A stretch of DNA of 64,000 bases, taken from positions 2,240,001 through 2,304,000 of the forward strand of contig CBDDDZ010000005.1 in the NCBI GenBank assembly GCA_965226795.1, given 5' to 3'. The first letter of the stretch is position 1. Each line of letters opens with the position of its first letter. The DNA comes from Candidatus Latescibacterota bacterium (GTDB lineage: Bacteria > Latescibacterota > UBA2968 > GCA-2709665). The notes under the pieces were generated by a model. The model did no database searches. It was not told the origin of the DNA and saw nothing but the letters and a program-made list of their open reading frames with translations. The translations under genes and the position numbers were made by a program. Below are positions 7,898 through 25,752 of this stretch, piece after piece.

Positions 7898-8202
7898 GGC
7901 GACATTTTTCGAATTCTACGGTGATCTGTCTTCGTGGAAAATACGTATATTCGGTAGATAGACTCGACGGTTTCCAATCGCCACATTGGTAAACAGGTAC
8001 CCCTTACGTTCCCATCTGTTGTGAGACAATTGCCCACCTAAAATAGAGAACGACGGAGCGGGCGAACGAGCGTCGAACGGTGTTTGATGAATCAGGTCTT
8101 CCAAAGGCCCCAATAGAGACTCGGATCCTTTCGCTGTAGAATTACGGCAATCCTTTAGGCGGGTCAAATCCGATCTGCCGACCAGAGATGCTTGGAAGCC
8201 AA

Positions 8203-9132
8203 TCACACTCCGGCGGCGGCGATGAAGTTGCGAAATACGTCGCGATAATCAGGCTGCGAATCCGCCAGGTCAGGTTGCCACTGACGGGCAGCCATCCAAC
8301 CCAGCGCGATTTTCGTAGCAGTAACCAGTTCGGAACCCTCGAGGCTCCTGAGGCCTGCGGCGCGGCGTTTGACGGCCATTCTATGGACGAGACCCCGGTG
8401 GCCGGGACGATTCCTGTCTCCTGAATTCAAAACCTGGAGATAGGCCGGGTCCAGAATCCACGGTCGACGATTCGGGTGGATATCAATCAGAACCGCACGC
8501 GCGCCTTCCGAAGGCGGATCTCTCATCAAGCCGTTGCACAGGTGGAAGTCATCGAAGCAAGTTTCCGATCCACACTTCTCGAAGACGAAATCCCAATGGT
8601 CGTCGAGTCTAGATAAGAGCACGTCGGCGGATCCCGGACATTGCTGCCTGATCGCTCCCTCGAGCCAGCCGGCAACTTCGGTCTGTGTCGTGACATTCAA
8701 TGCAGGGTCGGAAATCAGCTTCGCCTGTTGATAGAAGCGAATCCCGGCGTCCAGAAACAATTCAAACTCCCTGCCGTTCCAGGCATCGCCCAAGGGCCCG
8801 TAAGGAATCGCTTCCGATGCCAGCCAATGCACGTCAATACTTCCCAGACGTGATCCTGCAGCATAGACGGCAGGCGCCAGGCCGGGAGCCAGGCGATGGA
8901 GTTCCCTGCACCAGAAATTTTCCCGCTCGCTGGTACCAACCTTGACAATGACGACAAGGCCTGTCTCCCGGTGCAAACCCCGGAGATGAACCGCGATCAA
9001 TCCGTATTCCTGGACGAAAAGCTCTATTTCACGCGCGATCAAAGTGATCTCTTCGGTTTTGTTGACGGCTTCGAGAATCGTGCGCAAGACCGCGTCCGAT
9101 CGCGATACCCGTCCATGGTCGAAGATTTCCAC
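8203..9132 (-). CDS. Aminoglycoside phosphotransferase/kinase-like protein
   Basis: VIVKVG lysine strand, Brenner-like FDDFHLCN and LID motifs. Confidence 0.7.
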   Translation of the reverse strand: MEIFDHGRVSRSDAVLRTILEAVNKTEEITLIAREIELFVQEYGLIAVHLRGLHRETGLVVIVKVGTSERENFWCRELHRLAPGLAPAVYAAGSRLGSIDVHWLASEAIPYGPLGDAWNGREFELFLDAGIRFYQQAKLISDPALNVTTQTEVAGWLEGAIRQQCPGSADVLLSRLDDHWDFVFEKCGSETCFDDFHLCNGLMRDPPSEGARAVLIDIHPNRRPWILDPAYLQVLNSGDRNRPGHRGLVHRMAVKRRAAGLRSLEGSELVTATKIALGWMAARQWQPDLADSQPDYRDVFRNFIAAAGV

Positions 9133-9229
9133 CGTTTCACTCCTGTCAAGTCCTGTCGTAGCTGGGACCGCTCGTCTCGGACGACCCCGCTCCAGGTTTT
9201 TTTCGTCTGATTGGTCCGGCGCGCGGGCA

Positions 9230-10321
9230 TCAGAAATGGTCCGGCGCCCAGAAGATAACCTCGCGGCGGGGGAACCAATCCTCCAGTTGGCGAGCTTCCC
9301 CGGCCTCCAGCGAGATCCCGCGGGCGCGAAGGATGGGTTCCAATTCGCGGCCAGAGGACTCGCCGAACAGAAGGCGACACATCAGATCGGCCGGCAGCCT
9401 TGGCGCCAACTCCGCCGCCTCGGGTACGGCCATGGCGATCAGCGAACCGAGGTCGAAGGGCAGGGCCATCATCGAGTTGTTGCCAGTGAGTCCCAGATCG
9501 GCGTCAGCGGCAGCAACCAGTGCGTCGACAAACGGGTGGCCATGGGGGATCTCGCCCTGGATCTGCATCACCCCGGCCTCAGCGCACGCGTCGAGCAGGC
9601 ACTGCACAAGGGCATCAAGGGCCGGGCCGCTCTCGTAAGCGACCTCATACACCCTGGCATGTTCGCCGTCGCTCTCCCAGTTGATATACCCGCAGAGTCC
9701 CACCGGGCCACGGACGACGGTAGTGGGCAGCACGCCCCGCACACGGGAGGGGGCGTAGTCCCAGTACGGACGCGGACGCAACAGGCTGCCGCTGCGACCG
9801 GCGTTGTGACGCTGATAGAGCGCTACCGTCTCCTCCAGGTCGCGGCTCTCGTCGAAAGGCAGAACCTCGAGTAGGGACCGGCCCGGCTGCGGAGGACGGC
9901 GCAACTCTGCGTGAAAACCCGTCAGCGGCACGCAACACCAGCCGAGGCGCCGGTAGAAGCGTGCCGGGATCATTGTGAACAGCAGACCCAGGTCGTAAGC
10001 ATCGTGGCGCATGTGCTCCGCCGCATGCTCCATCAGCCGCGTGGCTATGCCGCGTTCCCGGTAGTCCGGATGCGTGGTGACGCCGCCGATGCCGCCCATG
10101 CGGACGGGCGTGGCGCCAACGTGGACCCGGCGGTCCCAGATACGCAGCGTCGATACAATCCGGCTTCCGACAACGACGACGGGTGTCTGTGGCGGACTCC
10201 AGGTCGGATCGCCTTCAATGTAGCCTATGTAGCGCTCGCGGCCCCCGGGGTTGTGCACGGCGCAGAGCAGGTCGAGGAGCTCCTCGAGTTCCGACTCGCG
10301 GATGGGGCGAATCTCTTCCAT
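9230..10321 (-). CDS. GNAT N-acetyltransferase, Eis-like tandem
   Basis: GGIGGVTTHPDYRERGIA and FYRRLGW motifs. Confidence 0.88.
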   Translation of the reverse strand: MEEIRPIRESELEELLDLLCAVHNPGGRERYIGYIEGDPTWSPPQTPVVVVGSRIVSTLRIWDRRVHVGATPVRMGGIGGVTTHPDYRERGIATRLMEHAAEHMRHDAYDLGLLFTMIPARFYRRLGWCCVPLTGFHAELRRPPQPGRSLLEVLPFDESRDLEETVALYQRHNAGRSGSLLRPRPYWDYAPSRVRGVLPTTVVRGPVGLCGYINWESDGEHARVYEVAYESGPALDALVQCLLDACAEAGVMQIQGEIPHGHPFVDALVAAADADLGLTGNNSMMALPFDLGSLIAMAVPEAAELAPRLPADLMCRLLFGESSGRELEPILRARGISLEAGEARQLEDWFPRREVIFWAPDHF

Positions 10322-10373
10322 AGTATCCGTTTTAAACTAATGAGGGCAGCCGCCGCAGCGCGGTATCCTGCCG

Positions 10374-10584
10374 TCACCGATCGAATGCCAGCGACAATCC
10401 GTCAAATGCGACTCTGAACCCATGGCTGGCGGCATACCTGTCCAGTTCGTCGTGTTCCAGGTAGCCTTCGTGTGAAATGTGTGTCGCGTACACCTGCGCG
10501 CCTCGCGCCGGAGCAGGCCTGACACACGCAGAAAGGGTTTGGCATCGAAGGCGCGGCTGATGTGCCAAGAAAGGTGACTTGCAT
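10374..10584 (-). pseudogene. Internally deleted MBL-fold (PhnP-like) metallo-hydrolase
   Basis: N-terminal MQVTFLGTSAAPSMPNPFCVCQAC abuts C-terminal VYATHISHEG...VAFDGL; the HxHxDH core is absent. Confidence 0.65.
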
Positions 10585-10620
10585 CGTTTAACCAGTTTCC
10601 GTCGTGGTACATCGCGAAGC

Positions 10621-11523
10621 TCACGCCAGATGCTCCGTCCGCAGTTGCCGCGACCACTCAAAGTATTCGCCCAGCCGCACCAACTCGAATTCATCGACAA
10701 TGTCGGCGGCGGTGCGTTCCGCAGACTCGCTGTAGATCACCGAAGTGCCCACCTCCCCGGTCGTGACAATGCGCACGGCCTCGCCGTATCGCCGATGAAT
10801 ATCGTCGAACCTGGCCCGATTCTTGTCGAGGTGCACCACTTCATAGTCCAGATTGATGCGCGCCGTGGCCCAACTCTGATAGTTATTGCTCTCTGTCAGT
10901 GTGGTCCCCTGCGGATCGATAATGGTGCAGGGGGTTCCCCTGTACACCGAGCCGACGAAAAAGGCCTGCACGTCCAGAGCCCAGAAGTTCTGCACCAGCC
11001 CGCCGTGGTACATGGAACTGAAAAGCAGCAATTTGGGCTTGAGCTTTTTGTACTGGGCCCGTAATTCCCCAAAGTTCAGATCAAAACAGATCACCCCACC
11101 CACCGGCCCGAATTCGGTGCGGATCAGGGTCGCGCCCGGACCGGGACGAGTGCCGTGGTCGAACTCCGGGTAGACCGGAATGTATTTGCGGTAGATACCG
11201 GCCAATTCCCCCCGCCGATCGAGCAGCCCGAGGACATTGAAGACCGCCCCGCTCTTGCGCTCCTTCTCATGTACCGGCACGGTGATATAGCAGCTGTACT
11301 CCCGGGCCAGGCCGGCCAGAAGCTGAGTTGTCGGCCCCTCGGGCACTTCCTCGTCGCAGTTCCGGCAGATGGTCTCGGGCAGGACGATCAGATCGGGCGT
11401 GGTGGCCCGGGCGACCTGCCCCACCAGGTCCTCCAGATCCTTGTGGGTCTGCTTCATCACCTTCTGGTCGTCTCCGCTGATCGGAGCGTAAGAAATGCTC
11501 GATACGACGATATAATTGCTCAT
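10621..11523 (-). CDS. Carbon-nitrogen hydrolase (nitrilase superfamily)
   Basis: LPE, YRK and ICFD catalytic triad motifs; start at MSNY (11523). Confidence 0.88.
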   Translation of the reverse strand: MSNYIVVSSISYAPISGDDQKVMKQTHKDLEDLVGQVARATTPDLIVLPETICRNCDEEVPEGPTTQLLAGLAREYSCYITVPVHEKERKSGAVFNVLGLLDRRGELAGIYRKYIPVYPEFDHGTRPGPGATLIRTEFGPVGGVICFDLNFGELRAQYKKLKPKLLLFSSMYHGGLVQNFWALDVQAFFVGSVYRGTPCTIIDPQGTTLTESNNYQSWATARINLDYEVVHLDKNRARFDDIHRRYGEAVRIVTTGEVGTSVIYSESAERTAADIVDEFELVRLGEYFEWSRQLRTEHLA

Positions 11524-11535
11524 GGTTTTTCCCTT

Positions 11536-11625
11536 TCGAAAGTCGATCCGTGTGGCTTTAATTCCTTGCTCCGCCAGGGCGATCGTTATCCGTCCTGCTC
11601 GACAGCCAAACTCGAGCACCCTTCC
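11536..11625 (-). pseudogene. Class I SAM methyltransferase fragment
   Basis: VLEFGCRAGRITIALAEQGIKATRID parallels VLELGCGTGRITLPLARQGVDVTGID of the gene at 31560-32345. Confidence 0.55.
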
Positions 11626-11982
11626 GCCGGAGCCTCACGTGCGCCGACCCAGACCTCGTTTCCATCCGGATCGCGAACGCGAAATTCTGTCATGTCGTAG
11701 AATGTTACACCGATGGGATTGGGGTCGAAACCTGCGGCAATTAGGCGTTCTCGTACCGTTTCAATATCGCACGTATAGTAGTAAACGACTGTGGAAGCGT
11801 TCGATTCCTTGCGTATGGATCGGTCAATCATCATCTGGCAACCATGTTCGCCTTCCAGCAAGGCAATGGCCCCACTCGTCTCTGCGGCGGACGACCTGCA
11901 GACCCAGGCCTTGCGAGTAGAAGGCGATAGCCTGATCCAATTGGGTTATCGGAACCATCGAGGTGATACGATGTATGCCCAC
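11586..11982 (-). pseudogene. VOC/glyoxalase family protein, frameshifted near 11870
   Basis: LDQAIAFYSQGLG and YDMTEFRVRDPDGNEV lie in different frames; GGGAGG RBS before GTG at 11982. Confidence 0.7.
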
Positions 11983-12084
11983 AGTCTTGCCTCCCAACTG
12001 GTCATCGAACCGCGAAAATGCAGCCCCTCCCATGTATCTTTGTGATTCTCAATTCACTGAACGAATTCAGGCATCAAGACCAGA

Positions 12085-12635
12085 TTAGCTGTGGATCCAT
12101 TTGTCGCGATTAATGAGATATACGCAGCGTTCGGGCAATACATCGGTGTTGAATTCACCCGGTGCATGGCCCGGCGGTACGCGTTCCGTCTCCACGAATC
12201 CCAGCCGGCGGAGAAGACGCACGGACCGTCATTTGCAGCAACGCATCTGGCTTCAATCTCGTCTAGATCCAAATCCGAAAATCCGAAATCAAGCATCGCT
12301 CGAACAGCCTCAGTTGCAAAACCGTTCCCCCAGTGAGCGGGAGACAGTTCATAGCCAATGTCACCTCGCCGGCTACCGGGATTGTCTGTCCGCACCCCGC
12401 AGTCCCCCAGTAATGCTCCGCTCGAACGGTCTGTAATCGCCAACTGGAATTTGCATCTCGGCCTTTCCTGTGACCATCCGATGCATATGTCGACAAAGCA
12501 TTCACACTCCTCCCGACTATAGGCCGGCCGGTAGTAGAATTCCAGGTATCTCGGATCCTCCCTGAATTCCGCAATGGCGTCCACGTCCTGTTCGGTAAAC
12601 TCCCGCAGGCGCAGCCGTTCAGTCAGTTTTTCCAT
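12085..12635 (-). pseudogene. GNAT (RimJ/RimL-like), frameshifted near 12228
   Basis: TERLRLREF and HWGNGFATEA; the expected SVRLLRRLGF continues in another frame to TAA at 12085. Confidence 0.75.
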
Positions 12636-12767
12636 CCCAGAGGACCCGTTTGTAATTTTCTGCTAACGGGAGTCCGGCTTGGGACCCCGCGAATTCGGAG
12701 CAGCGAATGCCAGGAGGCCACGGAACGCCGAAATGGAAAGGCGAAGTCGCTCTTCGAGGAGATCAAA

Positions 12768-13295
12768 TCAACGAGCAGTCTGATAAGAATAATCGACACC
12801 CGCGTCAGAGAAAATCCTGGATAGTTCGGGCACAGAGTCGACCGGGATGAGTAGGATGCACCATCTCCGCAAGATCTCAGGCATCCCATATGATTCCGAA
12901 CCGATGGCTTCGACCGGTTCTCTCGAGATGTACTCGTTGCTGGGCGTCTTCGTGAAATGGCGATCCTCGAAAACATAGACATTGGCCTCGAACTCCATTA
13001 TCCGCCTCTCATCCTCCGTATTTACAAAGATGTAACATTTCTTGTCCGGATCGGTCTCTATTACGAGACACAAGAGCTTGCGCCTGGATGCTTCAGAGTT
13101 TCTGACCCTTATTCGATGTATTCTTGGGAACAGGTGAATTGAAATCTCTTCGAAACCGCCGGCATAGAGCAGGCAGTCCGGGATGTAGCCTGGTTTGGCC
13201 CGGGTACTGCTGCTCCGGAAATCACTGGTACGGTAGAATTTCGTTGGATTGAACACCATGCTCTTGCGGGGAGCAGTTACTTTGTATAGGAGCAT
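12768..13295 (-). CDS. Hypothetical protein
   Basis: 175-aa ORF co-oriented with neighbours; no motif recognised with confidence. Confidence 0.6.
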   Translation of the reverse strand: MLLYKVTAPRKSMVFNPTKFYRTSDFRSSSTRAKPGYIPDCLLYAGGFEEISIHLFPRIHRIRVRNSEASRRKLLCLVIETDPDKKCYIFVNTEDERRIMEFEANVYVFEDRHFTKTPSNEYISREPVEAIGSESYGMPEILRRWCILLIPVDSVPELSRIFSDAGVDYSYQTAR

Positions 13296-13764
13296 TGTAT
13301 CGACACCGATCTTGCAGCAGAATCAAGCCTAAGGCGATCTCGTACGTCCAACAGGGATACGCCGATACATTCCATTATTTCATATATTTGCCGAGCCTGG
13401 AATTTAGCCTGTACTCCTGGAAATGCGTATGATACAAGGTTCAGCAGGCAAGACAAGTGTTCAGAGCCTGGTGTTTCAACGGAGATTGAGTTCGTTATCA
13501 CGTTCCATTGTAGAGTGTTTCACCAATATCTCCGGACAATCCACCATCGACTTTGGCGAATCGATGGCGTCCCGTCTCAGCGCCGATCCACGGAAAGATC
13601 AGCTACAATCCATTCCTATTAGGAATATAAATTAGCGCCGTCAGCAGAATCCTGAATCGTTCGGGCATTCAGCGGACGCACGCCCGTGGCTGCGGCCAAA
13701 TGTGTCGCGTAGAGTGCAGGCCCGTGTCAGTTTCGTGTTTATTCTCCCGGTTTGCATGGGTGCT

Positions 13765-13828
13765 CCTATAGAATAGCCCGGGAGCCACGCCGCGCGTGCG
13801 GCACAGCGCATTGCGGCGGTGTTATACG
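13765..13828 (-). other. Degenerate attC-like hairpin
   Basis: Minus-strand GTATAAC about 19 nt after the GNAT stop, with a central GC palindrome; distal box eroded. Confidence 0.35.
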
Positions 13829-13845
13829 CTGGAAGATACAGAAAC

Positions 13846-14319
13846 CTACCGGTTCAGCTCATCCTTCAATTCCATTCGTACAAATTCGAACTCGCCTCCG
13901 TTTGTCCGATTCATGTAGTGTTCGACTTCTTTGAAACCAACTCGTTGATATACCTTGATTGCCCGTTTGTTGAAAGCCGCAACCCGAAGCTGGATGGCTT
14001 TGGGAGAGAATCGAGATTGCGCGAAATCCAGGCCTGCGCGAACAAACGCCGCCCCTAAACCCTTCCCCGTCAGGTCGGGACGAAGTCCCAGACCGAAATC
14101 CACCACGGCGTCCGTGTTCTGGAACGCAAAGAACCCCACCAATTCGCCTGCGCTATCCCGAACAGCGAACATGGAGTCACCCCGGAGCGCGGGATCGAGA
14201 AGCTCCGCCAGATCTTCGGGATCCGCTTCAGGATCATAAAAGGCGTATTCGCCGTCGTAGTGCCAGGTAGCGATTCTCTCAGCAACAGATTGTTCCAATG
14301 GCTCAATATCGAATCGCAT
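13846..14319 (-). CDS. GNAT N-acetyltransferase
   Basis: GLGLRPDLTGKGLG and NKRAIKVYQRVGF; GTTAGCA about 20 nt upstream. Confidence 0.92.
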   Translation of the reverse strand: MRFDIEPLEQSVAERIATWHYDGEYAFYDPEADPEDLAELLDPALRGDSMFAVRDSAGELVGFFAFQNTDAVVDFGLGLRPDLTGKGLGAAFVRAGLDFAQSRFSPKAIQLRVAAFNKRAIKVYQRVGFKEVEHYMNRTNGGEFEFVRMELKDELNR

Positions 14320-14358
14320 CTGATGATATCCGATGCTAACTGCGGATGGCAGTCAAGC

Positions 14359-14721
14359 CTACTTGGGGGTAGGGCTCGTGAAGGTCAGCTTATTCTCAAA
14401 TGGATCCATAAGCCTTAGCTCCGTAAAGCCCCATGCCTGGTCTATGGGCTCTTCCGTCATGTCGCTCTTTTTACCCTTTAGCTCTTCGAAGATATCGAGG
14501 ACGTTTTCGACTTGGAGCAGGGCTGCGCCAGGGCGGCCTGCCGGTTCGCCGAGATGCTCCGATAGATGAAGTGCAAGGCCGCCTCGCGTAACGCCCATAT
14601 AGACGGGGAAATCCACAGCGTGACGCCACTCAAAGTCGATTTTGAACCCCAAAAACCCGATATAATAGCTCTTTGCCACTTCATAATCGTCAATCCGGAG
14701 GATGGGGTAAGCGCGTTCCAT
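14359..14721 (-). CDS. Glyoxalase/bleomycin resistance superfamily protein
   Basis: PILRI...YYIGFLGF...LHLSEH...WGFTELRLMDPFENKL. Confidence 0.88.
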   Translation of the reverse strand: MERAYPILRIDDYEVAKSYYIGFLGFKIDFEWRHAVDFPVYMGVTRGGLALHLSEHLGEPAGRPGAALLQVENVLDIFEELKGKKSDMTEEPIDQAWGFTELRLMDPFENKLTFTSPTPK

Positions 14722-14767
14722 GACTATTTTTCTCCTCCTCTGAGGTGTAGATTTTCTTCGATTGACG

Positions 14768-16189
14768 TCAGTTCTGAGGATCGGGATGGACGTCGGAGGC
14801 CAACTCGCGCAACACGTCGACCGCCAGGAGCACGTCCTCCCTACGACAGTCGAACTGCCCGACCTGGAAGCGGATGACGAACTGCCCCTCGTGGATCGTA
14901 TGCGTCAGGTAGATCCGGCCATCGTCGTTCACCGAACGGAGCAGACGTTCGGTGGCTTCGCTGGCACTTTCGCCGACGGGGGCGTACTGGAAGGTGAAGA
15001 GCGACAGTCGACACTCCGTCGTCAGGCGGAATCCGTCCAGCGATGCGATTGCGGCGGCCGCCTCCTCGGCCCACGAGATATGGTCCCGGATGCGTTGGCG
15101 GAGGTCTTCGAGACCGTGAGCGCGGAGCAGAAACCAGAGCTTGAGGGCCCGGAACCTGCGCCCCAGGGGGATCGTCCACTCGCTATAGTTGGTAATCTCG
15201 GACTGGCCGAGTGTCTGGAGATAGTCCGGCCGAATGCCCAGGGTGCGGACCTGCGGTTCCGGGTCCGCGAGAAACTGGATCGAGCAGTCGAACTGAGCGC
15301 CGAGCCACTTGTGGGGATTGAAAACGATGCTGTCTGCGTTCTCGATCCCCGTCCACACCCCCCGTAGCTCGGGGCAGATCATCGCGGAACCGGCCCACGC
15401 CGCGTCGACGTGGACGTAGAGATCATACGCTCGCGCGACTTCGATGGCCTCGTGCAACCGGTCTGATGCGCCGATCGACGTGCCCCCGACACACAGTACC
15501 ACGCCGGCCGGGAGGAATCCCGCCGCGCGATCATCATCGATCGCTACGCGAAGCGCCTCCGGGTCGAGCGCGCCTGAACCGTCGGTCGGGACCTTGACGA
15601 GATTCCGCTGGCCGATCCCGGCGATCCGTACCGCCTTGTCGATGGACGAGTGGGTCTCCAGCGAGGCGTAGATCCTGAGTTGTTGCTCCCCCGCCATTCC
15701 GGAATCGGTTCCTCGCCAGCCGAGCGCGTGCTCCCGCATTGTCAGAACGGCGCAGAGATTCGCCGTCGTTGCCGTGTCCTGGATCACCCCCTGGAACCCT
15801 TCCGGCAGTCCGAGCGCCTGGCGCATCCAGTCGACCATGCGCGTCTCGATCTCCGTCGCCGCGGGCGAGGTCTGCCAGAGCATGCATTGGGCCGCCATGA
15901 CTGCCGTCAGGTTCTCGGCGACCATCGAAACCGGTGCGGCGCTGGCGGGGAAGTAGGCGAAAAAGCGCCGGTGTTGCCAGTGGGTCATGCCGTCCGGCAC
16001 GATGCGCTCGAAGTCGGCGAAGATCGTCTCCATGTCCACCGGCGCTTCAGGCGGCGCCGCGGGCAGCATCGCGGCGATCTCGCCGGGTCGGGTCTGCGCC
16101 CGGACCGGCCGCTCCTCCAACGTAGACAGATAGTCCGCGCCCCACCTTGCGGCACGTTCGGCCCATCGAAAATAATCTTCTCTTTTCAT
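14768..16189 (-). CDS. Group II PLP-dependent decarboxylase (aromatic-L-amino-acid decarboxylase-like)
   Basis: THWQH, SPAATEIE, HVDAAWAG, NPHKW and LGRRFRALKLW motifs; start at MKRED (16189). Confidence 0.92.
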   Translation of the reverse strand: MKREDYFRWAERAARWGADYLSTLEERPVRAQTRPGEIAAMLPAAPPEAPVDMETIFADFERIVPDGMTHWQHRRFFAYFPASAAPVSMVAENLTAVMAAQCMLWQTSPAATEIETRMVDWMRQALGLPEGFQGVIQDTATTANLCAVLTMREHALGWRGTDSGMAGEQQLRIYASLETHSSIDKAVRIAGIGQRNLVKVPTDGSGALDPEALRVAIDDDRAAGFLPAGVVLCVGGTSIGASDRLHEAIEVARAYDLYVHVDAAWAGSAMICPELRGVWTGIENADSIVFNPHKWLGAQFDCSIQFLADPEPQVRTLGIRPDYLQTLGQSEITNYSEWTIPLGRRFRALKLWFLLRAHGLEDLRQRIRDHISWAEEAAAAIASLDGFRLTTECRLSLFTFQYAPVGESASEATERLLRSVNDDGRIYLTHTIHEGQFVIRFQVGQFDCRREDVLLAVDVLRELASDVHPDPQN

Positions 16190-16511
16190 AAGACGGCGGG
16201 TACACCTCGCAATGTCGTCGTTGGGGAAGTTGTGTCCTTGTTTTCCGCTCTTCCAATATAACAAAATCGCTTCAAAACCACTATTCTTCGTAATTCCAAT
16301 TGCGGAAACGGACTTACAACGGGCAGATGTGCAAAATATGGGGTCCTGCGGGCATTGTTTGGACTGTCCTGTAGCGGACATGGTATAGAACTTGAAACAG
16401 GGACCGGGATTGTATAGCTTGATACCAGACCGGTTTCGCTCCGTCGCAGCGCCCGGGCCTGCTAAGCATTAGGTTGAAGTTCCACCTCCCCCCGACGTCC
16501 CCTATTCCCTT

Positions 16512-16713
16512 GTCCTTTTTCTTATTCGCGTAAGAAAAAGGACCAAAAAGAACCGCGCCTGCCTGCCGAGCACGACTCGGCGCAGGCAGGCCGCTCGGCG
16601 CGGAGCCGGTTTTTCCGTGAATCTCGTCAGGGGCACAAATGGAAATTGGTTGCCCTGCGACCGCTGCGGGAACTACCTACCTACGGAGATGTACGGAATG
16701 ACACGGAAAAACC
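16512..16713. repeat. Highly structured intergenic element (nested hairpins)
   Basis: Perfect 13-bp stem 16512-16543, GCCTGCCTGC hairpin 16557-16591 and 12-bp long-range stem 16608-16619/16702-16713. Confidence 0.55.
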
Positions 16714-17256
16714 CCCAACACCCGGACTGTTCACGTGAGGGGTGAACCGCTCCTGTAAACAAAGTTATGTGCTTTCTCGTACCGTGATATTGCTGTTCGG
16801 ATCAGCGCGGAGAACCAACCTCAACCCGCGCAGCGGGTGACCTGTTGTTCCGAGGGTTTATGCGGAACAACCAGGGACGCCGGGTTCTGGCGTTCGAGGC
16901 TGATGGTGAGCGGCGCGAATTCTGCCGCGAACAAACCCACCTCTCCGCCACCGGCCGCCCGAGGGAAGAATTGCAATACGATGGTGATGCTGGACCTTAT
17001 AACGCGGAGAAACAACCTCCGCCCGCGTCCTGGTGTTTTCATCTCCCATTGAAGTCGTCGGACCGTGTCGCTAACCGGTGTCGGCTGAATACTGGCACGT
17101 AGCTGCCGATCGCAAGTTTTGATGTTTTGGCAAAAAACGACTGAGCTATATTGCCACCGCTATCGAAAAATTGCCACCGGTAAGCATAGCCCATAGAACA
17201 GAGATTACAGTCGCCGACTTCGTACAAGGACCCCCAATTATCGAGAGAAACTACCA

Positions 17257-18530
17257 ATGGATACACTTCCAATGCCTTCCCGTCCCGACCTTGCACAATA
17301 TGTGAAACGCTCCGAGGATCTTGTCAACTCGGCGCAGTCCGAAAATACCAGCGCGCTAAAGGAGTTCTGCAACGATTGGCTTGAGAAGATTGTCCGTATC
17401 TCCGGACCCGACCTGACGGATTTTATACAGGGCAGCTATCAGCGCGCCATCGGCGAAGTTGAAAAAGGCGCACGTGAAATGAAGGAGAAGGCGGGAAAGG
17501 GTGGCCGGGAATTCGGGCTTGCCGACGCGCAATTTCTCATTGCGCGGGCCCACAGTTTCGAGAGTTGGAACGCGTTTGCCGTCCACGTCGACCTTGCCTC
17601 GCGCGAGACTCCCGATGGGGCTGAGTTCGAGGTCACGGCCGATGCCGTGGCTGACGGGGATCTCCCGCAACTCGAGTCGCTGCTGCGCCGGAATCCGGCG
17701 TTGGCGCATGCCCGCTCCAATCGTGAACATCGGGCGACGCTGCTATATTACCTCGCCGCCAACGGCGTGGAGGACTTTCGCCAGCGGTCTCCCGCCAATG
17801 CGCCGGAGATCGCGCGGCTGCTGCTGGACGCCGGCGCCGAGGTGGATGCCCTGTGCGGGCCGGGTGAATCGGGAGACACGCCCATGTTGGCGCTGGTGAC
17901 GAGCGTTCATCCACACTATCGCGGCGTCGCGACCGAACTGATCGAGATATTCGTCAAGGCGGGTTCCAAAGTGGACGGGGTCAACGGGGACGGCGCGCCG
18001 GTACGCCTGGCCCTCAAGTTCGGATATCCCGAATCGGAAGCCGCCCTGGTGCGTCTCGGCGCAGAGGTTAAGACCGTCGCGATGGCCGCCGGTCTGGGCA
18101 GGCTGGAGCTGACGAGGGAATTCGTTGAAGAACGCGGCGTATCTGAGGCGGAGCAGGCAGCCTCGTTTGAAGATGCCTGTCGGTTCGGACGGACGGATAC
18201 CGCCGAATACCTTCTGGCAAAGGGCGCCGACGTGGACGGACAGGGCACGTGGAAGATGACAGGCCTGATGTGGGCAGCTTCCAAGGTCATATCGACACCA
18301 TGGCCATGATCCTCGGTCACGGTCCCTCGCTCGAATTGAGGAACGAGTTCGGAGGAACCGCGATGGGAACGGCCCTGCATTTCGCGATCAATTCGCCGAA
18401 CCCGGGGGCCGACCATTCGGCTGTGATCGACCTGCTCCTGAAGGCGGGAGTGAAGTTCGAGGGACCCAGGAAAGGAACCGGTGTCGCGAATCTGGACACC
18501 GTGCTTCGCAGGCACGGTCGGATTGACTAG
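17257..18530 (+). pseudogene. Ankyrin repeat protein, frameshifted near 18279
   Basis: Multiple ankyrin repeats (TLLYY, TPMLAL, TGLMWAA, TAMGTA); adding one T gives MWAAFQGHIDT and joins both ORFs. Confidence 0.8.
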
Positions 18531-18640
18531 ACCCGCAATCCGTCCACAGGCATCATCGGAAGAAAATCAAGGCGCGGCCAGGACGGCTGCGCTTTTCTGT
18601 TGGTGAACGCGAATGGCATTGCCACGTAATGTTTGCCGAT

Positions 18641-18749
18641 CTGAGAACCTCGAGCTCGGCCGCTGAGCCTGAACCCTGAGCCAGTTGCCCCTAAGGCCTG
18701 ACCTGAGCCGCCCCCTGAGCCTGTCGAAGGGTCGGCGAAGGGTGTTGAA
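18641..18749 (+). repeat. Composite REP-like element
   Basis: CTGAGAACCTCGAGCTCGGCCGCTGAGCCTG...CCTGAGCCTGTCGAAGGGTCGGCGAAGGG, similar to 34015-34086, 34710-34807 and 57672-57712. Confidence 0.75.
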
Positions 18750-19119
18750 GCGCGGCGAGCGGTTGCCGAATACCAGAGCACCAACGGCCCGCAGCGAAAT
18801 CCGCTCTGTCAAGGGACAGTTTACTCTTTCTGTGTGATTCCATTGCCTCCAAAAGCAAGTCGATCTTGTCGTCATAGTTGGCGACAAGCTTTGGAAGCGC
18901 CCGGAAATCGGCCAAGAAAAAATCGAAACGATCGAACAAAGATCCGTCCTCACCGGCTTCGCCATGACGCCAGATTTCTTCATCGGACGCCTCCACAGAC
19001 AGATGAAAGAACCAGCAGTCCTGTAGCTCATCGGTACCGCAATACCACATATCACGGGTATCCTGGTCCAGGAACCGCTCATAGGTACGAGAAATAGGAA
19101 TCGTGCCTCCCGGTTCCAT
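18691..19119 (-). CDS. Hypothetical protein whose 3' end runs into a REP-like repeat
   Basis: AAGGAG RBS; the last ~25 codons derive from the repeat. Confidence 0.45.
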   Translation of the reverse strand: MEPGGTIPISRTYERFLDQDTRDMWYCGTDELQDCWFFHLSVEASDEEIWRHGEAGEDGSLFDRFDFFLADFRALPKLVANYDDKIDLLLEAMESHRKSKLSLDRADFAAGRWCSGIRQPLAALQHPSPTLRQAQGAAQVRP

Positions 19120-19533
19120 TTTGTCTCCTTATCGTGCGTCATTCACTTCCATATTTTCCATTTTCACTTTGCAGTTGAATCGAACCGTCTCCCGCCAACG
19201 ACCCGACGGTATGGGTGCAAACGGCGGTTCAGACGGTCAACTTCGCAGCCTCCGACATCGCGTCGTCCGGAAGCAACTACATCAATTTCATCCTGGCCCT
19301 GACCCGTCCGGCGACACCTGAACCCACGGCGACGCCCGGCGTTCATTCCGTGGTCGTCGAGCCTCAATGGTATTACCCGGAGTTTGCACTGCATGCGACG
19401 GACGCGTGCAAGGACGAACCCATGCGCTCTGCGGATGAGGACGGTTGGGGCTATGACCTGGAAAACCGGACATCGTACGAGTACTCTCTTACCGTGAGTT
19501 CCCGTCGCCTTCCTGACTTTGCGAACGACATGC

Positions 19534-19562
19534 TTGACAATTCGCACATAATGCTTTATGCT
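19534..19562 (+). promoter_or_regulatory. Sigma70-type promoter for the four-gene operon
   Basis: TTGACA (19534-19539), 17 bp, TATGCT (19557-19562), 140 nt upstream of ATG 19703. Confidence 0.7.
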
Positions 19563-19702
19563 GAATTAACCACGCCACCACAGGGCTAAATTGGCTATTT
19601 TGATGACGAGGAACAGTGAGATGTTCCGGTCATGGCTGTGTTTACGCCACCGATTGATCATGTCGCTGGTTCGGCAGGTCTTTCAAACCCAGGAAACACG
19701 AT

Positions 19703-20503
19703 ATGGACAGTATCGAACAAGCATTTGACAACTCCGAAAATGCAGCGAAATCAGCCCTCCAATCCGCTACCAACCTGGTGAAGTTGTCCAGACGTCTGCA
19801 AAAGGCGGCCAAAGAGGGTAACATCGCTGTAATCAAGAAGTCCCGAGGCGGATTTAACGACGCCCTGGAGAACCTGACGCAGGTGGTGGCAGACGCTGTC
19901 CAATCCTGGCCCTATGGAGATGAAGAAGTGGAAGAATACCTCAAGGGTGGCTATACTGAGGAACTGCGTCGTGCCGCCTCGGAAATGGGCCTGGAAATCC
20001 ATGAACGGGACAAGCAGTTGATCTCACACCCGTCCACCTTGCGAATTTTAACCGAGGATGAGGCGGTCCGAATCGACAACAAGAAGATCTCGACCATTAA
20101 GCCGTCCTACCTGGTCGATCTGCTGATCGCGAATCAGAGGAAGCGCAGCCGCTTCTCGGCTAAACGCTTTCTGGAGGCCCTGTACAAAGTGTACTCGGAG
20201 CTTGTGAATGAAGATTCTTCGGACGGACTCATGACGGGCGGCTCCGGGCGCGTGGTACTTTTGGCCAGAATCTACAGGTTGTTCACGTCTCTGCCGGGCA
20301 GTGGACGAGATTATGCTCAAATTGACTTTGCCCGTGATCTTTACCAGTTGGAAACAAGCGGAGTCTCTAAGACGACGTCAGGCGCCAGTATATTCTTCCA
20401 CGCATCCACGGGAACCCGGGGCGCCAGAAACGTCTTCACCTTTGTCGGGCCGCACGGCCAGGACATCAAGTACTACGGCATTCGATTTACAAGGGATGAC
20501 TGA
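19703..20503 (+). CDS. Hypothetical protein, gene 1 of candidate defence operon (helical N-terminus, possible winged-helix C-terminus)
   Basis: 266-aa ORF with AGGA RBS; stop overlaps the next start (TGATG). Confidence 0.75.
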   Translation: MDSIEQAFDNSENAAKSALQSATNLVKLSRRLQKAAKEGNIAVIKKSRGGFNDALENLTQVVADAVQSWPYGDEEVEEYLKGGYTEELRRAASEMGLEIHERDKQLISHPSTLRILTEDEAVRIDNKKISTIKPSYLVDLLIANQRKRSRFSAKRFLEALYKVYSELVNEDSSDGLMTGGSGRVVLLARIYRLFTSLPGSGRDYAQIDFARDLYQLETSGVSKTTSGASIFFHASTGTRGARNVFTFVGPHGQDIKYYGIRFTRDD

Positions 20504-21471
20504 TGCACAACACAATCTCCATCTCTCTTAAGGACTGGCTGCAGGTTATTAACGAAGAGTACCTTTCGTCTTTCGTCCGTGGTGGCGGCGCGTCGATCAA
20601 ATTCGCAGTGCCATCAGACGAGGGGTCCAGGGCTGGTATGTACGAAAAAATGGAGGCCCATTGCCATGAGTTGGACTATCTTTTCATTAAACTGAACGCG
20701 GGTACAATGCGTGCCCATATGCCGCAGGACTTCTTTTTTATGATCGCCAGGCAAGTCGATTGGCGGCTATTGGCTCGCCGCATGATTTTGGGGATGGCCG
20801 CCGAGCAGGGCTACCAGATTGGTGGAATCCGCCCCGGCGTAGACGGCAACGTCTTCGACGCCATCGCGACAGTCAACGGTCTCGAATCGGAGTTCGTGCT
20901 CGGAAACCTGAGGCTGACGATACAGAACACTGTCTTCAAGAACACAAAGATGGCGAGAGATTTCCGGATGTGTATGAGCCATCTTTGCATGGAAGAATAC
21001 AGCCGTGGCGGGTATACTGGCGAGCCGCTCCTGGAGTGGCTGACGGGTGAGAACACGCGAATTAGTGGCGTCCGGCCCTTTTCCATCTACACCAGTATCA
21101 ATCGTAACACGGCCAGATACTTCATCGAATCGGCCCTCTACTGGATTCATCATGTGGGGCACTCCGGAACTGTAGTATTGTTTGACAACGCACGCGTAAC
21201 GGTGGCTAGAAATCCGAAGGACGATCTGCGCTACTACACCAGAGCCATGGCGATGGAACACTACGAGTTACTGCGGGAATTTATCGACGGCGTTGACCGG
21301 TTGACGAGCACGGTACTGGTGGTCGTAACCAACAACGACTTCCTCGACGACAGTGGCGATCGCAGGTCCCGAGGCTACGGGATATATGAGGCCCTGCGCA
21401 CCCGCGTGATGGACGATGTTCGCGATAGGAACAGGGTCAATCCGGTCGCATCCCTGGTGAGGCTGACATAG
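20503..21471 (+). CDS. BrxD/DUF2791-like ATPase-fold protein with degenerate Walker motifs
   Basis: Same layout as the downstream ATPase, but the Walker A position reads KFAVPSDEGSR and Walker B reads VVLFDN; retains YELLREFID and YEALRTR motifs. Confidence 0.65.
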   Translation: MHNTISISLKDWLQVINEEYLSSFVRGGGASIKFAVPSDEGSRAGMYEKMEAHCHELDYLFIKLNAGTMRAHMPQDFFFMIARQVDWRLLARRMILGMAAEQGYQIGGIRPGVDGNVFDAIATVNGLESEFVLGNLRLTIQNTVFKNTKMARDFRMCMSHLCMEEYSRGGYTGEPLLEWLTGENTRISGVRPFSIYTSINRNTARYFIESALYWIHHVGHSGTVVLFDNARVTVARNPKDDLRYYTRAMAMEHYELLREFIDGVDRLTSTVLVVVTNNDFLDDSGDRRSRGYGIYEALRTRVMDDVRDRNRVNPVASLVRLT

Positions 21472-21485
21472 GAAGGTGGAAGGCA

Positions 21486-22754
21486 GTGGCAGTTTGCGCC
21501 GATAAACACAAATTCGCCTCCAGGCGAGCCCTGGAGGCTCTCCGAAACGGCGTACCCAACAGGGACGCAGTGAAGATATTGGGCTGCAACCAGCCTGAGG
21601 CTGAAGATCAGTTCGAAGACATGTTGAACAGGGCTACAGAAGGCGTCGACCTTTCGTCCGGCACTTTCGGGATGCTGGTCTCCGGCGATTTCGGCTCCGG
21701 GAAGTCTCACCTGCTTACTCACCTGGAAGATCAGGCCCTTTCCCGGGGTTTCGTCTGTAGCAAGGTGACCATCAGCAAGGAGACGCCGCTATACGACTTG
21801 GGCAAGGTATTCAAGTCGGCCGTGGATAACGCCCAGATGCCCGACCGCACCGGCCGGTTGATGGAGGAACTGGGACAGGCGTTGAAGCCCGATTCACAAA
21901 AATACGCCGGTTTCTTTAAGTGGGCAAACGACTCCGGCTCTAACGGGCTGAGCCAGATGTTCCCCGCCAGTCTGCTCGTTCACGAACGGGCGGGCGACCT
22001 CGAGCTGAACAACGAGATAGAGAACTTCTGGGCGGGTGACAGAATTTACATTTCCCGGGTCAAGAATGGCCTCAGGCAGATAGGGCAAAAGCAGAGTTAC
22101 ACCTTCCGAGCGCCCAGGGCCGCCGACCTGCCGCCCCAGCGTCTCCGTTTCGCCGTCCAGCTGATCAAGGCTGCTGGTTACAAGGGCTGGGTGGTGCTGC
22201 TGGACGAGATCGAACTCGTCGGTTCGTACTCTCTCCTGCAGCGGGGAAGGTCTTACGCCGAGCTGGCTCGCTGGCTGGGACAGGCCGCCAGCGGGTCCTA
22301 TCCCGGGCTGAGAACCGTGGGTTCCGTCACCAACGATTTTGCTTCCGCAATCATCACGGATGGAAAAAAAGACCGCGACTACGTGGTACCAAAGTTGGAT
22401 AGTACGGATCGTTACGAAAGTTTGAAGGTAGACGCCGATACCGGTATGAGATTGCTCATACGAGGATGTTCGCCGTTGAATCAACCAACAGACGCGGACG
22501 TTCAACTGACCATGGAGAATCTACGGAGACTCTACGCCGACGCCTACGGCTGGGATGCTCCCCCGGTGCCAATAAGGGCCGGCGGCGCCGGGTATCAGAA
22601 CCGGATGCGCTACAAGGTCCGCGCCGCCATCAACGAATGGGATTTGATGCGGCGCTATCCCGATTACCAACCCAACACCGAGGGCGAGGAGTTCCGACAC
22701 CCCTATGCAGAGAACGCCGACCTCGAACGAGAGTCCCGGGACGACACTGATTAG
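21486..22754 (+). CDS. BrxD/DUF2791-like P-loop ATPase
   Basis: RRALEALRNGVP N-terminus, Walker A GDFGSGKSH and Walker B VVLLDEIE. Confidence 0.82.
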   Translation: MAVCADKHKFASRRALEALRNGVPNRDAVKILGCNQPEAEDQFEDMLNRATEGVDLSSGTFGMLVSGDFGSGKSHLLTHLEDQALSRGFVCSKVTISKETPLYDLGKVFKSAVDNAQMPDRTGRLMEELGQALKPDSQKYAGFFKWANDSGSNGLSQMFPASLLVHERAGDLELNNEIENFWAGDRIYISRVKNGLRQIGQKQSYTFRAPRAADLPPQRLRFAVQLIKAAGYKGWVVLLDEIELVGSYSLLQRGRSYAELARWLGQAASGSYPGLRTVGSVTNDFASAIITDGKKDRDYVVPKLDSTDRYESLKVDADTGMRLLIRGCSPLNQPTDADVQLTMENLRRLYADAYGWDAPPVPIRAGGAGYQNRMRYKVRAAINEWDLMRRYPDYQPNTEGEEFRHPYAENADLERESRDDTD

Positions 22755-22789
22755 AAGGCGACCATTTCTCCTTCCTGGGGTATACTGAA

Positions 22790-24922
22790 TTGCCGGAACT
22801 TTTTAATGAACTTAAATCGGTGAATACGGGATCCGGCGCGGTGGCCTGGCTGCGGTTCGTCGAAGAAAAGGGCGGTAAAGGCATACGGGCGGCGCTATTC
22901 CAGACGTCCGCACAGGGTGAACCACTGGACTTCTGCTTCACCCGGACGATTTGCTCGGGGTCTGGCGGACAACTGGCAATCGTCAACCCGGGTTTCTTGC
23001 TATCGCTGGTAAAATCACTACTCAGAGCTATCACTTCGGTGCCAACGTTGATACTCGCTCGGGCCGATGAAGTACCTCATGGATCGATCAACGAAGAAAT
23101 AAAGGTACAAGTACCCTTTTGCCGTATCGCAACATCCGGTGTTCGGCCCAATGGCGAATCGGACGACCCTTATAACGAAGGCTATGAATTGCTTTGGGTT
23201 ACTGAAAAACCCAATCCGGATACCGAAGCGAGCCAACTTCTCGTAAAGATACTGGACCGGGGCAATCCCGCTGAACCTTTCGAACGGGCGACTGCAGGAT
23301 TGGACGTGGCCTTTGGCGACGATCGGATTCACGCTGTCACCGACCTTTCGGGTTTGGCCGTTGTAGTGAGCTTATCTTCATTGCCCGAACTCCTTGGATA
23401 TCCAGCCAGTGATTACTCGGCAATTCGTGAGAATATCCATAAGGCAAGTTCAGGCCCACGACCCGACGTAACTCTGGCCGAACGTTTGTGGACCGTTCTG
23501 GCCAATCCGCCGGAACCTTCGCGAACGATCCCGCTGCATTGGGCCGGTGACTTGATGCCCTTCCAGCAGCAGGGTGTCCGGGCTTTGCTGGAAAACCGCC
23601 GGCTGCTGTTAGCCGACGACATGGGCCTGGGTAAAACCGTACAGGCGATCACAGCCTTACGGATTCTCCGGGCACGTCGCGAAATCAAATCGTGCTTGAT
23701 CACGGCTCCTGCAAGCGTGCTGAACCAGTGGCGGCGCGAAATCGAAAAGTGGGCGCCTGAGCTTTCCGCCATCATCATCCGTGGTTCGGTATCGGACCGC
23801 AGTTGGCAGTGGCATGCCGAGAAAGAAATAACACTCGTGAGTTACGATACTCTGAGGTCCGACTTCAGCACCCAATCTCTGGTGGGTCGCAAAAACTGGG
23901 ATGTGGTCGTAGCGGACGAGGCTCAGAGGATCAAGAACCGCAACGATACGAGCGATGCCCTGAAGGGGTTGAAAAGAAATCGCTCCTGGGCTCTGACCGG
24001 CACCCCTATGGAAAATCGCGAAGAGGAGCTGGCCTCGATACTGGAGTTCGTTGATTATGACCGCACTGGAGTGACAAAGCGGTACCGTCCAGGTGTGGAA
24101 TTGCAGAGGCGTCACCGTGAGTTGCAGGTTCGACGCAAAAAAGCGGAGGTCTTGAAAGACCTGCCTGTCAAGCAGGTCACGAAGGTAGACATCGAGTTGG
24201 GCTCCCGCCAACGCGAGAGCTACGATAAGGCCGAACAGGAGGGCATCGTCTACCTCAAGTCTCTTGGCGCGGAAGTCAACGTGCGGCACGTGCTTGAGCT
24301 CATCACTCGCTTGAAGCAAATCTGCAATGCCGACCCAAAGACCGGTGAATCCAGCAAATTAGCAGACATCAAGGACCGCGTGGACCAACTGGTAGCACAG
24401 GGACACAAGACGCTAATCTTTTCGCAGTACGTCAGCGAAACATCCGGCGTGGGGGCCGTGGCCAACCATTTGCGGGATTTCATTCCGCTTACCATCACCG
24501 GAGACTTGCCTCAGCAGGAGCGAGCCGAAATCATCGAACGATTCAAAACCTGCAGCGAACACAAAGTGTTGGTACTGTCGCTGCGGGCGGGCGGTCTGGG
24601 ATTGAACCTGCAGGAGGCGTCCTACGTGATTCACCTGGACCGTTGGTGGAACCCGGCCGTGGAAAGTCAAGCCGAAGACCGAAGCCACCGCATCGGCCAG
24701 ACGGTCAAAGTCAACGTCATCAAGTATTCCTGCATCGGAACCATTGAGGAGCGTATTGACGATATTCTGGAGAACAAACGGGAACTGTTTAACCAACTCA
24801 TCGACGATGTGTCGATGGATCTGTCCGCCCAGTTGAACAGTGATGAACTTTTCGGGCTGTTCGGACTAGAACGGCAGCTCGACTCGTGCTTTCATCATAA
24901 AAAAGGACCAATCCAAAACTAA
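22790..24922 (+). CDS. SNF2-family helicase/translocase with ~250-aa uncharacterised N-terminal region
   Basis: LADDMGLGKT, DEAQ, TGTP, LKQICN, IFSQY, GGLGLNL and DRWWNPAVESQAEDRSHRIGQ; start uncertain (TTG 22790 or GTG 22820). Confidence 0.93.
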   Translation: MPELFNELKSVNTGSGAVAWLRFVEEKGGKGIRAALFQTSAQGEPLDFCFTRTICSGSGGQLAIVNPGFLLSLVKSLLRAITSVPTLILARADEVPHGSINEEIKVQVPFCRIATSGVRPNGESDDPYNEGYELLWVTEKPNPDTEASQLLVKILDRGNPAEPFERATAGLDVAFGDDRIHAVTDLSGLAVVVSLSSLPELLGYPASDYSAIRENIHKASSGPRPDVTLAERLWTVLANPPEPSRTIPLHWAGDLMPFQQQGVRALLENRRLLLADDMGLGKTVQAITALRILRARREIKSCLITAPASVLNQWRREIEKWAPELSAIIIRGSVSDRSWQWHAEKEITLVSYDTLRSDFSTQSLVGRKNWDVVVADEAQRIKNRNDTSDALKGLKRNRSWALTGTPMENREEELASILEFVDYDRTGVTKRYRPGVELQRRHRELQVRRKKAEVLKDLPVKQVTKVDIELGSRQRESYDKAEQEGIVYLKSLGAEVNVRHVLELITRLKQICNADPKTGESSKLADIKDRVDQLVAQGHKTLIFSQYVSETSGVGAVANHLRDFIPLTITGDLPQQERAEIIERFKTCSEHKVLVLSLRAGGLGLNLQEASYVIHLDRWWNPAVESQAEDRSHRIGQTVKVNVIKYSCIGTIEERIDDILENKRELFNQLIDDVSMDLSAQLNSDELFGLFGLERQLDSCFHHKKGPIQN

Positions 24923-25168
24923 TGTAGAGATGGGGCACAGCGTGATTCGAGCGGTGACCGAAATGCGCGAGACGCAAACCTGCCGCGTGTTTGCAGTTCC
25001 GTGGCAGGCAATCCACACGTGTCCGCGCCTTGCTGTGCCGATCTCGCGATGGCGCACAGTGTGATGCTCAACCCTGCCCTTCGGCCAACGCCCTTTTGCT
25101 GTCGTATATCTACCAATAGACGATATAATGCGATTCCCAGACCCTCGAGCCAAAAGGAGATCTCACAT

Positions 25169-25390
25169 TGCAGGCTCCGACACCGCAAGACAAACTGGCC
25201 GAATTTGACGCCCGCTCGTCGCGGATCGAGGGGATTGTTGAGCCGATGGATGCACGATTGAACAGCCTGCAGCACGACCGATGACGAGCAAGGCCAACGT
25301 AATATTTTGTCCTGGATTCGATGGCTTTTAGGAATCCAGATTACAAGCTTGATCACGCTTGGCACGCTCATTTTGATCGAGCTTGGATAA
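25169..25390 (+). pseudogene. Decayed small coiled-coil plus C-terminal TM protein
   Basis: AAAGGAG RBS, interrupted frames, and a final WIRWLLGIQITSLITLGTLILIELG*. Confidence 0.35.
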
Positions 25391-25463
25391 CCCCAACTGC
25401 GGGTTTCCAATTCCGCGAATATAGACCCGCGGCCTCATTGAAGCCCCTTCGACAAGCTCCTAA

Positions 25464-25623
25464 CAGTCCGTTGAAAAAGTCGCTCTGCAGGCGAGGCCGA
25501 GTCATTGTGGCCAAAGACAAGGCGCGCGACCGCGTCGAATCGGGGGATTCGGGGAGGGAGTGCAACGCAGTAATTCGGCCACAAGGGCCGGACGCAGCCC
25601 GGATGGACTTTTTCAACGGGCTG
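25464..25623 (+). mobile_element. 160-bp MITE (copy 1) with CTAA target duplication
   Basis: Terminal IRs CAGTCCGTTGAAAAAGT / ACTTTTTCAACGGGCTG, flanked by CTAA at 25460-25463 and 25624-25627. Confidence 0.85.
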
Positions 25624-25752
25624 CTAAGTGTCGGTACTGATGCATCCGTCAACGTTCGGCGTTGCTTCGCCATCTTCATTGTTCCCTATTTTCAAAAAAG
25701 GAAATAGTCTCACTATTATATGCACCGAGGGGTATTGCCTTCTATCCCGCAA

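Follow-up and report, generated by a model that had tools for sequence, protein, structure and literature searches.

The window considered here, a stretch of 64,000 nucleotides from Candidatus Latescibacterota bacterium (contig CBDDDZ010000005.1), carries a compact cassette of four genes that encode a leading protein, a pair of BrxD-like proteins and a SWI2/SNF2 ATPase (Table 1). An earlier note, made from the letters of this stretch, had described four close-packed genes on the plus strand, and the coordinates and spacing of the open reading frames (ORFs) confirm this arrangement, with genes 1 and 2 overlapping (-1 nt, TGATG) and gaps of 14 and 35 nt separating genes 2 and 3 and genes 3 and 4. 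The promoter proposed in the same note, TTGACA-17-TATGCT, is borne out by comparison within the genus: the scan alone is no better than chance (5 sites vs 3.5 +/- 1.8 in shuffled sequences), but six of six genus loci share the exact hexamers at the 17-nt distance, with a spacer sequence that varies. Two further impressions stood in part. The polarity contrast between the cassette and its surroundings is not absolute because the ankyrin gene just upstream shares the plus strand. Likewise, the cassette ORFs are intact as claimed, but the lesion load around them was overstated, as comparison with intact orthologues marks four of 17 neighbours as clearly broken and one as doubtful. Two of the neighbour frameshifts read in frame in contigs from RNA runs and may therefore be strain or assembly differences. 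The ankyrin-repeat gene (17257-18527) has a frameshift near 18285; relatives have an intact version of 424 aa, and one RNA-run contig reads it in frame.

Table 1. The cassette and its parts, numbered from the first letter of the window.
Feature	Position	Strand	Remark
Gene 1	19703-20503	+	266 aa ORF
Gene 2	20503-21471	+	322 aa ORF
Gene 3	21486-22754	+	422 aa ORF
Gene 4	22790-24922	+	710 aa ORF
Gene 4 head domain	22790-23329	+	about aa 1-180
Gene 4 SWI2/SNF2 ATPase	23564-24922	+	intact GKT and DEAQ motifs
Sigma-70-type promoter TTGACA-17-TATGCT	19534-19562	+	motif scan and genus conservation
Block common to cassette-bearing genus relatives	19503-24881	+	absent at the same site in non-carriers

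Genes 2 and 3 had been read as two BrxD/DUF2791-like ATPases. Both indeed belong to PF10923, with matches above the gathering cut-off of 22.2 (gene 2, E 2e-8, 33.9 bits; gene 3, E 1e-19, 71 bits), but the absence of Walker A from gene 2 makes the pair one dead and one live member. Among near-full-length matches, to which the residue counts of both genes are restricted, Walker A is present in 0/139 gene 2 homologues, and Walker B has no Glu, its D being followed by N or I in most of them. Gene 2 thus lacks the motifs of an active AAA+ protein (Walker A GK[ST], Walker B DE), and it stops before the lid. Its arginines are kept (R258 and R290 in 139/139 homologues, R301 in 138/139). In gene 3, the Walker A lysine K73 and the Walker B residues D240-E241 are each found in all 126 homologues and R375 is invariant; the arginine matching the position of gene 2 R301 is less fixed (103/126).

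Compared directly, the two genes give no BLAST match and a weak hhalign match (E 4e-4), and their kinship was therefore established via intact distant relatives, namely loci in which two BrxD-like ATPases occur side by side. Gene 2 aligns with the intact first ATPases of these loci (probability 98.5, E 4e-15, 280 columns), which places its broken P-loop on their Walker A, and its R301 motif aligns with a motif common to the distant first ATPases and to SngB, the ATPase of the Shango system. The best match of gene 3 is the second ATPase of the same relatives (E 1e-25). A quick tree of 39 rows likewise places gene 2 with the first ATPases and SngB, apart from a group of gene 3 with the second ATPases (support 97, long branches). 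Together, the alignments and the tree split indicate that the ATPase duplication is old and that gene 2 lost catalysis later. Gene 2 is, as judged from its motifs and sequence kinship, an inactivated AAA+ core of the BrxD/SngB lineage. R301 is likely its arginine finger, which would act on gene 3. BrxD itself is assigned to the ORC/Cdc6 class with an arginine finger and has been proposed to be a helicase loader, according to a published study (PMC12839542). The cassette is also mosaic: relative to the genus relative L021, dS is 0.04 in gene 1 but 0.22 in gene 2, and the differences of the RNA-run contigs likewise cluster in gene 2, a pattern that suggests recombination between cassette copies.

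Gene 1 had been called an unknown protein, and it matches no family in Pfam, NCBIfam or PADLOC above cut-off, nor does any family match recur among 121 aligned members. The family is nevertheless large, with 411 proteins and 801 clusters at 50% identity; its closest named record comes from a Candidatus Latescibacterota genome (99% identity). The AF2 model (pLDDT 87.6) shows a helical hairpin (residues 1-70), a small beta domain (about 100-145) and a C-terminal domain of three helices and a beta-hairpin, whose order of elements suggests a winged-helix-like fold. In four fold searches either the N-terminal hairpin governed the outcome or no match reached significance, so that the C-terminal domain was poorly probed. 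Foldseek returned no match at E <= 0.001 among PDB and viral structures, VIA-align matched residues 1-72 only, to generic coiled coils, and the ESM Atlas gave unnamed clusters or nothing.

Gene 4 matches SNF2 and Helicase_C in Pfam, as expected from the SNF2 helicase named in the earlier note, and comprises a head of ~180 aa, a linker and the SNF2 core. The motor motifs are intact (K282 in GKT, D376-E377 in DEAQ), and the protein ends ~60 aa past the core without an Mrr domain. Among 66 genome-derived loci, 11 encode the head on its own, as a gene of 180-190 aa, and the other 55 have it fused to the motor; the fusion occurs in 0/30 metagenome loci. Furthermore, 534 proteins of about head-domain size match the head, which is marked by conserved Glu, Glu and Arg residues. 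Gene 4 thus unites a fifth component with SNF2. PDB-sequence and Pfam scans with the head were blank. Homology to endonuclease V (EndoV) had been suggested by eye, but neither the local nor the global hhalign comparison was significant.

The same leading protein and ATPase pair are accompanied by other helicases in distant relatives. In eight loci (L101-L108), two intact BrxD-like ATPases occur together with a gene 1 homologue and with a helicase of 1890-1940 aa; the one large helicase that was scanned resembles both BrxHI (E 3e-87) and SngC (E 3e-73), and a second, SF1 helicase forms its end. Locus L254 (8673-14143) combines an ATPase pair, the second member of which has an extra N-terminal domain, with a shorter helicase assigned from motifs only, L252 (6585-13534) has three BrxD-like ATPases and a shorter helicase likewise named by motifs only, and in L109 (9058-15037) a UvrD-like gene accompanies the pair. 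Four of five leading proteins tested against gene 1 with hhalign are clearly related to it (E 6e-12 to 5e-6); the 302-aa protein of L109, with a weak resemblance (probability 1.9), was not counted as a homologue. Since a gene 1 homologue and the ATPase pair occur with varied helicases, the constant core is the putative adaptor and the ATPase pair, with the motor being exchanged. The L101 locus (8140-17212), with its 1890-aa double helicase, represents together with L102-L108 an unnamed system and a candidate in its own right; a Cas4-like match in the L101 helicase stays under cut-off (E 0.067).

The cassette resembles several named systems and belongs to none of them. The earlier note recognized no PglZ, PglX, BrxC or TerB-like gene, and indeed no BrxC, PglX or PglZ is linked to the cassette and gene 1 has no TerB match; its view of a distinct module agrees with the comparisons below, in which the tested components of BREX, Shango and Zorya were not encountered. 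Shango is an ATPase-helicase system that protects against phage (10.1101/2022.11.11.516204), and the likeness is also drawn from a second report (10.1101/2022.05.11.491447). Both Shango and the cassette combine, in a small operon, a leading protein with a PF10923 ATPase and a helicase of the SF2 type; gene 3 weakly matches the SngB model (E 3e-6), gene 2 lies on the SngB side of the tree, and the distant relatives of the cassette use an SngC-like helicase. However, the TerB domain of SngA is absent from gene 1, which has no similarity to two SngA proteins (hhalign probability 0.2-0.3) and no TerB match; a TerB_N search of the genome likewise gave no match, but neither did its control. Shango has a single SngB, whereas the cassette ATPase is duplicated with one copy dead, and gene 3 scores 24 bits with the SngB model compared with 588 bits for the true SngB of locus L110. 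SngC is a DEAD/DEAH-box helicase, unlike the SNF2 motor and head of gene 4, and is not among the 25 best PADLOC matches of the latter. L110 (5766-12841) and L255 (5749-12344), from two Latescibacterota genomes, appear to be true Shango loci, each followed by an unassigned gene.

The second point of comparison is the BrxD-BrxHI dyad of BREX type 2 (Pgl), in which a BrxD-family ORC/Cdc6 ATPase is likewise coupled to a helicase. Here, the differences are the lack of linked BrxC, PglX, PglZ and PglW (in locus scans and in the gene clusters of 80 loci), the lack of a conserved modification enzyme (PglX or PAPS reductase) beside the cassette, the presence of two ATPase paralogues and the replacement of the Ski2/Lhr-like BrxHI by SNF2. 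The cassette ATPases reach 64 and 24 bits with the BrxD equivalog NF033438, the cut-off of which is 350. BREX acting in trans was considered and rejected; the genome has a single PglZ match, 440 kb away, and the protein concerned (518 aa) carries a receiver domain at its N-terminus and is present in all 15 genus genomes. The cassette is, on these sequence comparisons, an apparently unnamed sister of Shango and of the BrxD-BrxHI dyad and a member of neither, because its distant relatives share the ATPases and a BrxHI/SngC-like helicase. Gene 2 also recalls BrxB and BrxF, which PMC12839542 describes as inactive STAND subunits with a Walker-less ORC/Cdc6-type core; like them, gene 2 has a Walker-less core without a helical bundle and stands next to an active ATPase. 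It differs in belonging to the BrxD/SngB lineage, in being well conserved instead of fast-evolving and in keeping an arginine-finger-like motif.

In PADLOC, gene 4 matches ZorD of type I Zorya best (E 3e-84), and the SNF2 and Mrr layout of ZorD recurs in proteins of a sister clade; ZorD carries Mrr as its effector (PMC11890865). Nonetheless, gene 4 scores 151 bits with the ZorD equivalog (vs 1500 bits) and the window copy is without Mrr, ZorA/ZorB (MotA/MotB-like) and ZorC are absent from the cassette and its common neighbours, and a MotB_plug profile search of the genome found nothing. No published description of the cassette was found in main texts, although large supplementary tables of predicted systems could list it; the accessible parts of 10.1101/2025.09.30.679545 and PMC5099237 contain none.

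The four genes travel as a unit. A genome scan confirmed 125 relatives and a metagenome scan 580, and 80 were kept from each; gene order was counted at loci with at least 5.5 kb downstream (77 genome, 26 metagenome). The full order of genes 1 to 4 is present in 63 of 77 genome loci, in line with the conserved order that the earlier note had proposed to look for, and the remainder consists of one locus without a gene 2 call and 13 without gene 4. Co-occurrence of SNF2 with genes 1-3 thus holds at most loci, including 26/26 metagenome loci with enough room, but is broken at those 13, which fall in three separate branches of a gene 3 tree (FastTree). By record titles, the 80 genome loci belong to Chloroflexota (41), Acidobacteriota (15), Binatia (8), Latescibacterota (6), Pseudomonadota (4), Actinomycetota (4) and Thermodesulfobacteriota (1), with one unassigned, that is, to seven phyla. 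These lineages are typical sponge symbionts, and a run labelled sponge metagenome contains the stretch. The cassette is, on phylogenetic evidence, horizontally transferred: the Latescibacterota copies are nested among Dehalococcoidia copies (support 98, FastTree), and one Chloroflexota locus has 73% DNA identity over 5.2 kb. Within the genus, gene 1 occurs in nine of 15 genomes, and an empty site was found in all five non-carriers tested (five of six), where the ankyrin gene lies 10-1266 bp from the downstream genes compared with 7.2-8.0 kb here. All four genes are under purifying selection, with dN/dS of 0.09-0.41 in 25/25 gene-by-relative comparisons, gene 2 included, and constraint is strongest in the SNF2 core (0.09-0.12).

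The cassette is predicted, with a probability of roughly 0.6, to be a DNA-targeting defence cassette, likely directed against invading DNA. This is the leading reading because relatives carry nuclease fusions: an Mrr motif ends 20 of 30 complete SNF2 proteins of the sister clade in the metagenome set (several near-copies are among the 20), and the SNF2 protein of L112 is also Mrr-tailed (Pfam Mrr_cat, E 8e-22). Locus L137 (10004-15877) holds a further copy with Mrr, made up of five genes. In the proposed mechanism, gene 1 would bind foreign DNA through its winged-helix-like domain as a sensor or adaptor. Genes 2 and 3 would pair as an ORC/Cdc6-like heteromer whose single composite ATP site takes its Walker motifs from gene 3 and its arginine finger from gene 2, and this ATP switch may load or license the SNF2 motor on DNA. 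In the sister clade, cleavage would then be due to Mrr carried along by the motor; in the window copy the gene 4 head might provide the output, or the motor might do so by stripping proteins from DNA, which is the least certain step.

The genomic neighbourhood had been expected to show defence-island enrichment, and a modest excess is found, although the linkage is weak. Genes of toxin-antitoxin (TA), restriction-modification (R-M) or nuclease type make up 23 of 123 distinct proteins adjacent to the cassette in genome loci and 9 of 117 distal ones, at least 5.5 kb upstream (p 0.014), or 19 and 8 in a stricter count (p 0.041); the classes were assigned by hand after the results had been seen, and half of the signal is due to PIN (6) and Uma2 (6) genes. 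Type I R-M genes touch the cassette at L157, L137 and L042, CARF and GmrSD do so at L144, and at L157 (3981-15650) the cassette lies inside a type I R-M locus, with hsdR on one side and the YgjP-like gene on the other. One N6 methylase is found among the 123 adjacent proteins, and none is conserved beside the cassette. Besides the post hoc classification and the dominance of PIN and Uma2, several observations weigh against a defence role: the cassette has no defence neighbour in the window, and at other loci most of the adjoining genes are metabolic; Mrr is found in 0/65 members of the window's clade, which has no recognizable nuclease, a contrast that describes two clades and is no test of habitat, since the genome and metagenome sets were retrieved with different alignments; the head profile scores E 0.4 against 21 EndoV sequences, within shuffled scores; genes 1-3 are intact at the 13 loci without gene 4, and five of those genomes yielded no close SNF2 orthologue elsewhere (best 36-40% identity); and searches of 72,556 plasmids and of viral contigs gave no cassette match.

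The prevalence of metabolic neighbours would also fit an accessory DNA repair or DNA-stress module, which senses damaged or stalled DNA-protein structures that SNF2 then clears. SNF2, Lhr-type and UvrD-type helicases also act in repair, and such a role would sit well with a strong consensus promoter, with RNA-run cover in uninduced samples and with a clade that has no recognizable nuclease. It is nonetheless considered unlikely, as the cassette is patchy within one genus, with empty sites, and has been transferred across phyla, the exchange of helicases and the fusion to Mrr typify conflict systems, and its nearest characterized relatives, BrxD and SngB, are defence proteins.

The lack of Mrr and the repeated absence of gene 4, in three branches of the gene 3 tree, could alternatively mean that the clade is disarmed or incomplete. 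Genes 1-3 would then be a sensing platform with an effector encoded elsewhere, for which the one unlinked Mrr_cat gene of the genome might be cited, and the cassette alone would be inert to phage. That constraint peaks in the SNF2 core, that head and motor are fused in most genome-derived loci and that the cassette spreads as a unit over seven phyla, which argues self-sufficiency, make this rather improbable; moreover, the sole PglZ match of the genome is the receiver-domain protein and not a part of BREX. The least probable rival is a mobile-element module for replication or maintenance that became stranded in chromosomes and consists of a DNA-binding protein, Cdc6-like loaders and a helicase. 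The horizontal spread, the empty sites and the pairing of a helicase with ORC/Cdc6-type ATPases would suit it, but in the gene clusters common to the 80 loci no integrase, primase or flanking gene co-travels, no flanking repeats were found around the cassette, transposases and integrases are no commoner adjacent to it (8/123) than distally (8/117), the plasmids and viral contigs searched gave no match, and SNF2 proteins are not known to be replicative helicases.

If the defence reading is correct, a more far-reaching version of it can be put forward tentatively, as a possibility that is somewhat doubtful at present. The cassette would represent an unrecognized family of Shango-sister defence systems in which a new adaptor and an ancient ORC-like heteropair load interchangeable motors (Lhr-type, UvrD-type or SNF2), one ATPase now being a pure arginine-finger donor. 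Its spread without Mrr through sponge symbionts of seven phyla would then imply a nuclease-free defence mechanism or a new catalytic head. Few parts of BREX and Shango are as poorly understood as BrxD and SngB, and the dead/live pair, the variants with and without Mrr and the helicase variants make the helicase-loader idea testable by mutants and swaps. In addition, PF10923 counts in sponge metagenomes have been read as Pgl genes (PMC5099237) and may partly represent this cassette.

Contigs from RNA runs found with this stretch give a weak hint of transcription. In one metatranscriptome, four overlapping contigs span 19579-25459 at a depth of 25-31, and the downstream flank from 25944 on has a depth of 0-3.4. 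An RNA-run contig of a second study also begins at 19579, 17 nt past the -10 box, and one from a third study starts further upstream, at 19496, ahead of the promoter. Folding of the 5' leader is no better than that of shuffled sequences (z -0.27).

The surrounding window (1-64000) is a long, mostly minus-strand run of small accessory genes, by inspection GNAT-, methyltransferase- and glyoxalase-like, the content of which varies between genus relatives. Downstream of the cassette lies a MITE-like element of 169 bp (25460-25628) with 21-nt terminal inverted repeats, which is not at this site in L021. It has 24 matches in the genome, 17 of them full length, and dozens in each of five genus relatives, and its summed depth in the RNA runs is very high. 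Two more dispersed repeats, at 16470-17030 and 18630-18760, are present in tens of copies genome-wide.

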